A stretch of 64,000 nt of DNA from Eledone cirrhosa (GCA_964016885.1 OZ024740.1:342240001-342304000), one strand, 5' to 3'. Shown: positions 17,169-26,881, numbered from the stretch's first letter. Notes: a model not told the origin generated them from the letters alone. A program made the numbers and translations.

Positions 17169-17555
17169 ATATATATATATATATATATATATATATATCT
17201 ATATATCTATATATCTATATATATATCTATATATATATATATATATATATATATATATATATATATATATATATATATATATATATATATATAACTCTCT
17301 CTCTCTCTCTCTCTCTCTCTCTATATATATATATATATATATATATATATATATATATGTAGATAAATCTACCAAAAGTTTACGGTAGTGTCCAATCCGT
17401 ATGAAGAACTCAATGTAATCCGGATATCATGGAAAGAAGAGATGCATTCAAAAATCACTTTCGGTGAAAGATAAACGGAATACAGAGTCAAGATAAAATG
17501 TTAAAAAAATAATGAATAAAACAATGAAACAGTTCCTTATATTAAACAAAAAAAG

Positions 17556-17749
17556 TTCATTATTTAACGATCGTTTCTAGGACATATATGTGTTAGAATT
17601 GGCATGCATATTCAACAGATCTATGTACAAAATTATACAAAATTATACAAACTATCAAATATAATATACAAAATTATACAAAATTATACAAACTATCAAA
17701 TATAATATACATACCAACACATACATATGCCGTCTTCAGAAATAATGAA
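17556..17749 (-). ncRNA. Type I hammerhead ribozyme (PLE pLTR), left-arm copy
   Basis: Mirror image of 26562-26714, with an extra ~41-bp tandem duplication in the stem II loop. Confidence 0.75.
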
Positions 17750-20253
17750 ATATATTTATTGATAATAACAACAATTCAAAATTACAGGTCTGTTTGGGAA
17801 CAGAGTTCAAATTGACCAATGAAATACACAAAAATATATCAAGAAAATACAGTTAGGTGTGTGTATATATGTAAGTAACCTCGTTCACAGATATGCATAA
17901 AAATATATGTTCACATGCATACGCATGTCGAAAAAATGTATGTAAATACAAAAATTCAGGGCTAATGTCTCTGTATGTTTATAATCTACAGACAAAATAC
18001 ACATACGTATATAAACATATATACACTCATATATACACACATATACATACATTTATACACATACGCGCATATACACATAAACATACACATACCCACGAAC
18101 ACACACACACACACACACACACACACACACACATACGTATATATTATTATTATAACTATATGGATATTAAGGCGCACACATAAACACTGCCACATATATT
18201 TACATCTAGATGCAGTAGGTAAAGTAGGTAAAGGGGGTCAGTAATTACTGAGGGTGTCAGACAACTGCCTATTTATAAAATGTATCTATAAATTTAGAAA
18301 TAAAAAGAAATATATTAAAAAGAAATAAACAAGTAAAATATACACTCATACATAAAATACACACCGATATACATATATATATATATATATACATATACAT
18401 ATATACATACATATATATATATATACACACATATATATAGAGACATATACATATACATATATAAATACATAGACACACATACATACACTCATATATATAT
18501 ACATATACTCACAACACATATATATATATATACACATATATGTACATACACATACACATACATACATATACATATATATATACACACATACATATACATA
18601 CATATATACACACGCATATATATATACACATACACGCAGATATATATACACACATACATATACGCACTTGTACATACACATACACATATCCATGTATATA
18701 TATACACATACAACCACACGCTCACACACAACTCAGACATACATAAATAAAGAGATATACATACACACATATATATATATATATAGATATATACATACAC
18801 ATAAATATATATACACACACATACACATACACACATATATATATATATATATATATATATATATATATATAAAAATAAATAAATAAATAAATAAATAAAT
18901 ACACACAGTCAGATAATTATGCACACATATATATATACACATACACACATCTCTACAAATATATATACACACATACACACACACACACACATATATATAT
19001 ATATATACACACATATATATGCATAAATAGATAGACATACATATACATATATATATATCTATATATATACAATCATATATATATATATCTATATATATAT
19101 ATATCTATATATATACAATCATACACACTTATTTACATGCGCACATATGTATTTTTATACTCACATACAAACACCCAAACATACATACATACTTACATAC
19201 ACATACATACATCCACGCTTACAAATACGAATAATTATAGGGGGGGGGGATTAAAATTATTAGTGGGAAATAGTAAATATAGGTTTCAAGGAACATAGAA
19301 TATTAATCTGCATTTAGATCATAATATGTGTTTACATAGTAGTTTCAGTATTAGGAAATGTAAGAAAGAAGGCAAAATTATGCATTTTAATATAAGTAGA
19401 CTATTAATTATAGGTTAACTAAATTAAAAATAGTTAATATATTGATTTCTAAGGTGTATACCACTTAGGTTTATAATATTTAAAGCGGAATTTTGAAGTT
19501 AAACAGTAGTAGAGTATTAATTATAGCATAACTAAATTAAAAATATTAACATTATGGTATCAATTTTAGGAAATGAATTTAGTAATAGGGAAAACCAAAT
19601 CAAGTATTTCATCGGTAGTAGAATATAAATTATAGGTTAACTAAATTAAAAATTATATATTAATTTCTATAGTATATGTTAATTAGGTTTATAATAATTA
19701 AAGCAGATTTTGTATTTTATCTATAGTAGAATATAATTATAGGTTAACAAAAATTAAGATTAATATATATATATATATATATTTAATTGTAAAGAATATA
19801 TTAATATATTAATTAGGTATATATTTAAAAGTTTATCTCAGTTTATGATTATATGATATTCTGCAATCCATCTGTATTAGAATTTTAATTTTAAGCTAAC
19901 TAAATTAAAATTATAGGTTAACTAAATTAAAATTAATTTATAAATAAATTTCTAAATTGTACATTAATTAGGTTTATAATATTAAAAAAGTATTTCTCTG
20001 TTATTGATTACACGATATTTTGTTATATTTCATCTGTAAAGGAATTTTAATAAAAGGTTAAATAAACTAAAATTAATCTATAAATTAATTTACAAAGTAT
20101 ATATTAATTATGTTAATAATATTTAAAGTTTTTCACAATTTATGATTACACAATATTTTTTAATCTCATCTGTAGTAGAATTTTAATTAAATTAAAGTTA
20201 TAGGTTAACTACATTTAAATTAAATTATATATTAATTTCTAAAATATATATTA

Positions 20254-24870: not shown

Positions 24871-26561
24871 TACTTATATTAAAATGCATAATTTTGCCTT
24901 CTTTCTTACATTTCCTAATACTGAAACTACTATGTAAACACATATTATGATCTAAATGCAGATTAATATTCTATGTTCCTTGAAACCTATATTTACTATT
25001 TCCCACTAATAATTTTAATCCCCCCCCCCTATAATTATTCGTATTTGTAAGCGTGGATGTATGTATGTGTATGTAAGTATGTATGTATGTTTGGGTGTTT
25101 GTATGTGAGTATAAAAATACATATGTGCGCATGTAAATAAGTGTGTATGATTGTATATATATAGATATATATATATATAGATATATATATATATGATTGT
25201 ATATATATAGATATATATATATGTATATGTATGTCTATCTATTTATGCATATATATGTGTATATATATATATATATGTGTGTGTGTGTGTGTATGTGTGT
25301 ATATATATTTGTAGAGATGTGTGTATGTGTATATATATATGTGTGCATAATTATCTGACTGTGTGTATTTATTTATTTATTTATTTATTTATTTTTATAT
25401 ATATATATATATATATATATATATATATATATATATATATATGTGTGTGTATGTGTATGTGTGTGTATATATATTTATGTGTATGTATATATCTATATAT
25501 ATATATATATGTGTGTATGTATATCTCTTTATTTATGTATGTCTGAGTTGTGTGTGAGCGTGTGGTTGTATGTGTATATATATACATGGATATGTGTATG
25601 TGTATGTATATGTGCGTATATGTATGTGTGTATATATATCTGCGTGTATGTGTATATATATATGCGTGTGTATATATGTATGTATATGTATGTGTGTATA
25701 TATATATGTATATGTATGTATGTGTATGTGTATGTACATATATGTGTATATATATATATATGTGTTGTGAGTATATGTATATATATATGAGTGTATGTAT
25801 GTGTGTCTATGTATTTATATATGTATATGTATATGTCTCTATATATATGTGTGTGTATATATATATATGTATGTATATATGTATATGTATATATATATAT
25901 ATATATGTATATCGGTGTGTATTTTATGTATGAGTGTATATTTTACTTGTTTATTTCTTTTTAATATATTTCTTTTTATTTCTAAATTTATAGATACATT
26001 TTATAAATAGGCAGTTGTCTGACACCCTCAGTAATTACTGACCCCCTTTACCTACTTTACCTACTGCATCTAGATGTAAATATATGTGGCAGTGTTTATG
26101 TGTGCGCCTTAATATCCATATAGTTATAATAATAATATATACGTATGTGTGTGTGTGTGTGTGTGTGTGTGTGTGTGTGTGTGTGTGTGTGTGTGTGTGT
26201 GTGTGTGTGTGTTCGTGGGTATGTGTATGTTTATGTGTATATGCGCGTATGTGTATAAATGTATGTATATGTGTGTATATATGAGTGTATATATGTTTAT
26301 ATACGTATGTGTATTTTGTCTGTAGATTATAAACATACAGAGACATTAGCCCTGAATTTTTGTATTTACATACATTTTTTCGACATGCGTATGCATGTGA
26401 ACATATATTTTTATGCATATCTGTGAACGAGGTTACTTACATATATACACACACCTAACTGTATTTTCTTGATATATTTTTGTGTATTTCATTGGTCAAT
26501 TTGAACTCTGTTCCCAAACAGACCTGTAATTTTGAATTGTTGTTATTATCAATAAATATAT

Positions 26562-26714
26562 TTCATTATTTCTGAAGACGGCATATGTATGTGTTGGTAT
26601 GTATATTATATTTGATAGTTTGTATAATTTTGTATAATTTTGTACATAGATCTGTTGAATATGCATGCCAATTCTAACACATATATGTCCTAGAAACGAT
26701 CGTTAAATAATGAA
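26562..26714 (+). ncRNA. Type I hammerhead ribozyme (PLE pLTR) with long stem II
   Basis: TTCATTATTT-CTGAAGA-[~114 nt, partly self-complementary]-GAAA-CGATCG-TT-AAATAATGAA. Perfect 10-bp stem I, palindromic stem III ACGATCGT, GUU site. Confidence 0.8.
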
Positions 26715-26881
26715 CTTTTTTTGTTTAATATAAGGAACTGTTTCATTGTTTTATTCATTATTTTTTTAACATTTTATATATATATATATATATATATATA
26801 TATATATATATATATATATATATATATATATATATATATATATATATATATGTATGTATGTATGTATATATATATATATAT

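Follow-up and report, generated by a model that had tools for sequence, protein, structure and literature searches.

Paired fixed ends in head-to-head insertions of a Penelope-like element family of Eledone cirrhosa

The window analyzed here is a stretch of 64,000 nucleotides from Eledone cirrhosa (GCA_964016885.1, OZ024740.1:342240001-342304000), the central feature of which is a palindrome of 9,422 nt formed by two 5′-truncated copies of a Penelope-like element (PLE) joined head to head. Among the insertions of its family the locus is unexceptional, and the inverted insertions of the family follow an end rule: all outer ends that were read lie at one of two fixed sites, A (reference base 6195) or B (6332), joined to (AT)n, and 50 of 51 insertions pair one A end with one B end. 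The reading that we consider probable is a form of twin priming, in which reverse transcription would be primed from both target strands, at two start sites inside the element, and the two complementary DNAs (cDNAs) would be joined head to head. Base numbers refer to a natural tandem unit of the element.

Fixed outer ends and the distribution of the tail

Both outer ends were read in 31 long inverted insertions, of which 30 are A/B, one is A/A, and none is B/B (binomial p = 3e-8 against 0.5), and consecutive short palindromes of the family are A/B in 20 of 20 cases. The long insertions were tallied by hand; the second version of the window locus, described below, was counted once, two short palindromes met by chance were included, and a four-copy tandem array was left out together with the loci having one unread end (h06, h07, L087, L097, L044, L053, and L057). 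It should be noted that the B end of L045 is deduced from sequence that passes A and reaches the edge of the stretch, and that, because the microsatellite-rich 3′ part of the element breaks up k-mer and BLAST maps, ends were read from its pseudo-long terminal repeat (pLTR) alone. Any target-site duplication is unreadable in (AT)n.

The sequence between the two sites forms a 3′ tail of 137 nt on one arm, and its distribution bears directly on the mechanism. The longer arm ends at B in 14 insertions and at A in 13, the arms being equal in 3, and in 13 of the 27 unequal insertions the shorter arm carries a tail that the longer arm lacks; a short arm of this kind is therefore no snap-back copy of the long arm. 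At L050 and L052 the inverted arm consists of the tail only, and at L046 it is a 15-nt stub of the last bases of the tail. The first-pass annotation had proposed that the nascent cDNA snapped back and copied itself fully and that the hairpin was integrated, a scheme in which the endonuclease would have to trim one arm at A. This fits the window locus, where the inverted arm lies within the longer arm and the tail is on the longer arm, and in the available text of Craig et al. (PMC8557442) the tail is ascribed to endonuclease resolution of an intermediate. However, the scheme fails in the 13 of 27 insertions just mentioned: the shorter and the longer arm bear the tail with about equal frequency, so that trimming would need to be blind to strand chemistry. 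Tail-only and 15-nt inverted arms would require precise switches to the cDNA start, the pairing of one A with one B end is not predicted, and the termini of the equivalent tail in an Anolis element map to start sites of reverse transcription, according to the available text of PMC11167929. As a general mechanism, snap-back of a single cDNA is very unlikely, although the junction at the window locus, with its native loop and 4-bp microhomology, is compatible with it.

The palindrome at the window locus

Alignment of the two arms gives 4,582 matching positions, with 12 substitutions and 8 gaps. Their head-to-head orientation and the center described in the first-pass annotation (22130/GTTTTA/22137, a loop of 6 nt) are exactly as found, as are the run of both outer ends into (AT)n, four amino acid differences between the arms (ISP/ICP, ENTS/ESTS, KKT/KRT, and KANC/KAKC), and differences in microsatellite length. 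The reported duplication of about 41 bp is likewise present, as 41 nt at 17671–17711 in stem II of the left pLTR; the second version of the locus shares it, and full-length copies lack it. The arm length of about 4.64 kb given there holds for the right arm (4,641 nt), but the left arm is 4,775 nt long, owing to a 3′ tail of 134–137 nt, on the left only, that had been missed. At the outer end of the left arm, the last 3–4 bases are common to the element and (AT)n. In the left arm, loss of 1 nt from a run of A at 21601 shifts the coding frame; this run has seven A in 22 of 24 family arms scored, six in one, and eight in one. The two arms stop at most 11 bases apart, near codon 185.

The loop was said to continue the coding sequence of the element, and this is true of five of its six bases, the remaining base not being native. 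In family copies, the native sequence at the junction is GATCATAAATCAAAC/TTTAAC (K-S-N-F-N), and the native element has a 4-bp inverted microhomology, TAAA/TTTA, flanking the loop. Among 25 other family loci, 22 read GATCAT AAA TCA AAC/TTT AAC, with single-base variants, and run on well upstream of the truncation point, and 3 turn to inverted sequence shortly ahead of it. The junction pattern of the window locus occurs at two sites genome-wide and a control pattern at none, which places the junction far beyond chance. Most family junctions show 1–5 nt of microhomology or a few added bases.

The palindrome is a real head-to-head insertion and no read chimera. A second version lies 753 kb upstream, with the same junction, flanks, loop, and tail asymmetry but with different substitutions (five between its arms), and the segment around it has 98.3–99.9% identity at six of seven offsets sampled between −200 and +400 kb. 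A tract of at least 600 kb occurs as two direct copies spaced about 753–761 kb apart (contig 1 (C1), about 341.31–341.91 Mb and 342.06–342.67 Mb), and represents either two haplotypes assembled in tandem or a recent large tandem duplication. The fold-back chimera named in the first-pass annotation as the case that would undo its interpretation is ruled out, because the second version shares the junction and has diverged separately. The wider proposition, that an assembly or library artefact or some subsequent rearrangement, for example loss of a spacer that separated two inserts, produced the structure, is hardly credible, given that the outer ends differ and obey the family rule and that the loop corresponds to native sequence; what can be said for it is that the center and ends lie within repeats and that no public read or contig compared bridges the junction. 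That comparison covered 4 of 10 listed runs against 22040–22230, the runs being other samples in the form of short contigs or reduced-representation data, and no listed piece bridged the junction, a weak test that is uninformative either way; 153 further pieces lay outside the listing. The element copies in these samples differ from that in the window, and a group of 31 reads matches the native sequence to 22140 and then runs on as unfolded element. No empty allele was found, the insertion being present in both assembled versions of the region.

Across both versions no substitution distinguishes left from right arms, only the stem II duplication being left-specific in both, and hence there was little or no difference between the arms at the time the versions separated. 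At a site 959 bases from the center (21171 and 23096), both window arms carry A, and the base is C in the two arms of the second version as well as in 19 other arms; at a second site both arms deviate from the family base, by different bases. The derived base common to both window arms suggests arm-to-arm conversion, cross-talk in assembly polishing being the alternative. The versions differ at 20 of 7,505 sites in the arms as against 28 of 24,835 in the flanks (p = 0.005), a density about 2.4 times greater in the arms.

Similar relationships are seen across the family. In 21 of 21 insertions, the arms are only 0–1.2% apart over the open reading frame (ORF), as compared with a median of 2.2–4.7% to other copies, and among the polymorphic calls in 22 short palindromes the arms agree in 274 of 279, as opposed to 70% between loci. 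An origin of the arms at the window locus from one source sequence, identical or nearly so at birth, is thus supported. The allele sharing is compatible with double copying of one RNA, with two RNAs of a single source, with snap-back, and with later conversion, and does not tell these apart.

Inverted insertions in the genome

When head-to-head pairs were looked for in the genome with a 30-base endonuclease pattern (1,635 exact matches), 32 of the first 100 matches listed (148 Mb of contig 1) formed 16 head-to-head pairs within 10 kb, with no tail-to-tail pair. Two of the 16 are near-spacerless and longer than the window locus: a 9.9-kb palindrome of 9,862 nt (C1:49909046-49918907) with a 5-nt loop and 4 substitutions, and a 12.1-kb palindrome of 12,122 nt (C1:113214548-113226669) with a 7-nt loop, 5 substitutions, and a perfect stem of 2,718 bp. 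Simple scaling gives about 30 near-spacerless long palindromes genome-wide, with wide error. Among 15 unpaired matches examined, an inverted arm was present in nine and absent from five, with one undetermined.

Short palindromes are far more numerous. A pattern for palindromes centered just 5′ of the hammerhead core of the pLTR has 803 sites (control, 0) with many different centers, and both arms of these stop at, or a few bases from, reference base 5981, with varied junctions that include loops of 0 and 1 nt; such loops with both arms complete are common among short palindromes. In the light of these and of the two longer palindromes on the same contig, the view of the first-pass annotation that a multi-kilobase, almost spacerless palindrome is unusual does not hold. 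The short pLTR-only palindromes (L138–L159 and the 803 sites), about 560 nt long, have the look of miniature inverted-repeat transposable elements or foldback elements, yet they have varied centers and one A and one B end. One short family palindrome, at C1:114853900-114854480, is inserted in an (AT)n that belongs to the 3′ part of a different family member.

The stop at base 5981, the A of a TCATT motif, is sharp: 1,567 arms start there, 119 one base upstream, and 315 one base downstream. The preceding base is G in 31, 6, and 6, respectively, of the first 100 listed (hand counts, the three patterns each excluding a different native base). Among 50 listed short palindromes, 12 have G before 5981 on one arm, 5 of which are also readable as native on the other arm; L158 and L159 have a non-native G on both arms, and both loci carry locally repeated inserts. 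An initiator-like transcription start and a G copied from the RNA cap are the likely cause of this pattern, from which we infer that base 5981 is the capped 5′ end of the RNA. The common stop and the loops of 0–1 nt would then be explained without an added assumption, as two cDNAs would run off the same RNA end.

Classification of the element

The Penelope identity given in the first-pass annotation is supported, and the motifs match those of the Hydra clade of PLEs. The filing is by motif since Pfam, PDB, and Rfam gave no supporting match: neither a Pfam scan of the 625-residue frame nor a PDB search of an 811-residue frame was informative, domain names being those that the motifs indicate, and the 80 Rfam matches were all under the gathering score, mostly microRNA models on hairpins or microsatellites, with no hammerhead among them. 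The full-length copy L038 has a single frame of 811 residues with the YRDD motif of reverse transcriptase (RT) followed by a C-terminal IVY..YIG motif, together with RWR at residue 37, DKT at 115, a CxCx5C linker (CNCRNKANC) at 671, CRLC (CxxC) at 769, and CNH (CxH) at 797; GxKF/Y had no match. In the endonuclease, one C directly follows IVYK and one precedes YIG, a CxxC pair and CCHH being absent there. The hammerhead-type pLTR motif, which we take to have a type I layout, folds with z = −4.19 (0 of 200 shuffles being as good), and its core motifs and three stems fold as expected.

The clade is defined, in the available text of Craig et al. (2021, PMC8557442), by a single ORF with RT and a C-terminal endonuclease, RWK, the lack of GxKF/Y, a change of DKG to DKT, CxCX5C, the lack of CCHH, CxxC and CxH toward the C terminus, a pLTR hammerhead, and insertion in (TA)n. 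The Eledone element resembles it in having RT with a C-terminal GIY-YIG domain, the RWK-like RWR, DKT, the CxCx5C linker, CxxC and CxH near the C terminus, no cysteines between the GIY and YIG equivalents, a pLTR hammerhead, and (TA)n targets, which the run of all A and B ends read into AT-type repeats matches. It differs in size, the tandem unit of 6,482 nt (about 6.5 kb) contrasting with the “generally <3 kb” of that account, where it is a tendency and no fixed rule, and this reflects the long microsatellite-rich 3′ part. The family also has thousands of ends in one genome, and its tail is 137 nt long as compared with 30–40 nt in other PLEs, as far as the available descriptions go. Assignment to the Naiad/Chlamys PLEs, which have an N-terminal endonuclease and no hammerhead, was rejected, the endonuclease motifs being C-terminal here and a hammerhead-type fold being present.

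Mechanism of insertion

In the twin-priming reading, the endonuclease would nick both strands of the (AT)n target, after which one 3′ end would prime reverse transcription at site B (the left arm of the window locus) and the other would do so at site A, which lies 137 nt more internally (the right arm). The cDNAs would extend for variable lengths and be joined by microhomology or end joining, with subsequent fill-in. At the window locus, the cDNA 3′ ends would have been joined through the 4-base microhomology, and the near-equal stops could reflect one common broken RNA or a coupled stall; the template would be either one RNA copied twice, with strand displacement, or two RNAs from one source. 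The two fixed ends in the target repeat and their pairing as A and B in 50 of 51 insertions suggest that each arm may have had its own target-primed start, the priming itself being what we infer from them.

For LINE-1, twin priming was reportedly put forward by Ostertag and Kazazian in 2001; the second target strand is said to prime a second cDNA on the element RNA, with head-to-head joining by microhomology, the second primer acting at variable internal sites and the two parts not overlapping. In the Eledone family, by contrast, both starts would be fixed, 137 nt apart, and the same sequence would be copied twice, giving inverted repeats.

Sites A and B are read as putative start sites of reverse transcription by analogy with the Poseidon element of Anolis, the protein of which, in vitro, nicks and extends both target strands and starts reverse transcription from two internal sites, one at each boundary of the tail (Frangieh et al. 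2024, PMC11167929). Two internal starts bounding a tail, nicking and extension of both strands, AT-rich targets, and a predicted dimer are features of Poseidon that make the likeness; its start sites lie in the ORF start, whereas here they would lie in the 5′ untranslated part. The Poseidon text, in the portion available, draws no link to inverted copies and leaves the later steps of integration open.

Inverted 5′ copies, junction palindromes, and a one-ended tail have already been described for PLEs (PMC8557442; PMC3846280, available text), and the inverted structure has been ascribed to endonuclease resolution in the first of these and to antisense self-priming in the second. The Eledone insertions resemble those described in that a 5′-truncated inverted copy adjoins the 5′ end, with junction palindromes and a tail that is often one-ended, but differ from the available accounts in three respects: inverted arms extend to as much as 6 kb, the rule for the tail has been put into numbers (50 of 51 insertions A/B), and the arm that bears the tail may be either the longer or the shorter. 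Antisense-transcript self-priming, the published explanation of head-to-head palindromes in Adineta Penelope elements (PMC3846280, available text), predicts neither fixed ends in (AT)n, nor their A/B pairing, nor a G before the start base of the sense strand, and is most improbable here. In the literature searched, which did not reach older subscription Penelope reviews and supplements, no proposal of twin priming for PLEs was found, and the available portions of bioRxiv 10.64898/2026.07.22.740005 and PMC13282606 contain nothing on inverted PLE structure.

The snap-back junctions described for R2 insertions (PMC11371274, available text) resemble the present ones in having an antisense cDNA copy at the 5′ junction, but in R2 the inverted segment is contained within the cDNA and lacks a fixed end, whereas here it has a fixed end and often contains sequence outside the long arm. 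They do lend weight to a hybrid scheme that should be taken seriously but that we judge unlikely, in which A and B serve as priming sites on the two strands, the long cDNA doubles back (at TAAA/TTTA in this locus) and copies itself, and the new sense strand anneals with the short second cDNA in the pLTR; the ends would then derive from twin priming and the interior of the second arm from snap-back. This would account for the native 6-nt loop with its 4-bp stem, for alleles that are always common to both arms, and for an excess of near-zero offsets between arm stops. The scheme is unneeded for tail-only inverted arms, however, the 0- and 1-nt loops and the G on both arms at 5981 are better fitted by two run-off cDNAs, and in the remaining two long palindromes the loop contains bases that are not native and a native stem is slight or absent. 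Snap-back at the window junction, together with a second priming event, is possible.

Several observations weigh against twin priming and should be set beside its support. The window junction is that of a textbook fold-back, with native loop and 4-bp stem, and the tail there sits on the longer arm, so that snap-back fits. The near-zero offsets, found in 2 of the 11 pairs whose ends both fall within the ORF (p about 0.005, uniform null), are explained directly by snap-back and by twin priming only with an added assumption. Mixed-subfamily arm pairs number 0 of 21, and an origin from two templates is hence unsupported. In exact-pattern counts the ends are unequal (3,813 A and 5,095 B), the A/A insertion (h04, C1:30693535-30707362) has arms identical over 1,321 ORF bases with an offset of 134, and 5 of the 15 unpaired loci lack an inverted arm. 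It should also be recognized that the sample is non-random, the long pairs coming from the first 148 Mb of one contig and the remainder from best-scoring copies.

Twin priming may, moreover, be the normal route rather than an accident. We lean slightly toward the view that PLEs ordinarily integrate by programmed double target-primed reverse transcription from two fixed RNA sites on opposite target strands, a single route that would account for inverted pLTRs, one-ended tails, and palindromes at the junctions.

Features of the window

The features of the palindrome are collected in Table 1. Close to it, a repeat at 26857–27220, found also at 13050–13416, adjoins the right-end (AT)n and has a sub-threshold tRNA match at its start; it is probably a tRNA-derived short interspersed element. 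A broken copy of a second Hydra-type family (45–56% protein identity) lies on the minus strand at 48774–50472 and is split by a short repeat at about 50102–50293. LINE fragments are present at 7152–8844 (RVT_1 match, 4.5e-30), 34730–35248, and 46203–46658, and a 6.3-kb array of a 39-bp unit, with about 95% identity, occupies 53224–59530. The plus-strand segments 948–2663 and 46826–47227 presumably represent Penelope-like fragments of other clades (DKGG motif; GIY-YIG with cysteine pairs).

Table 1. Features of the palindrome, in window coordinates
Feature	Position	Strand	Remark
(AT)n target repeat, left end	17323..17359	.	From sequence; continues leftwards as (CT)n and (AT)n
Left arm, 5′-truncated Hydra-type PLE, ending at site B with tail	17356..22130	-	
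Tail, 137 nt between end sites A and B, left arm only	17356..17492	-	Both ends recur genome-wide
Hammerhead-type motif of left pLTR, with 41-nt stem II duplication	17556..17749	-	Mirrors right-arm motif
Truncated RT and GIY-YIG-type endonuclease frame, broken at 21601	20254..22130	-	
Junction: TAAA (22127-30), loop GTTTTA (22131-36), TTTA (22137-40)	22127..22140	.	
Right arm, 5′-truncated element, ending at site A, without tail	22137..26777	+	
Open frame, C-terminal 625 of about 811 residues (first 186 lacking): YRDD, CxCx5C linker, IVY..YIG, CxxC, CxH	22137..24014	+	
3′ untranslated part, AT-rich, containing internal repeats as well as (TA)/(TG) arrays	24015..26561	+	Mirrored at about 17750-20253
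Hammerhead-type pLTR motif: stem I, CUGAAGA, long stem II, GAAA, short stem III	26562..26714	+	Fold test
A of TCATT, reference base 5981, putative transcription start	26565 (mirror 17746)	+	Arms of short palindromes stop here
(AT)n target repeat, right end	26778..26851	.	From sequence

Implications

The origin of the tandem and inverted structures of PLEs is named as an open task in the available text of Craig et al. (2021, PMC8557442). The window locus taken singly is ordinary, but the family-wide pairing of A and B ends bears on the open question of Penelope transposition, and a young, high-copy family provides countable evidence for a specific and testable answer. If the programmed route is correct, the family mass-produces near-perfect palindromes, 800 or more of them short and some tens multi-kilobase, that persist with arm-to-arm conversion. 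The family also provides, in an animal genome, numerous near-spacerless palindromes whose origin is known, as material for studies of palindrome persistence, mutation, and conversion.

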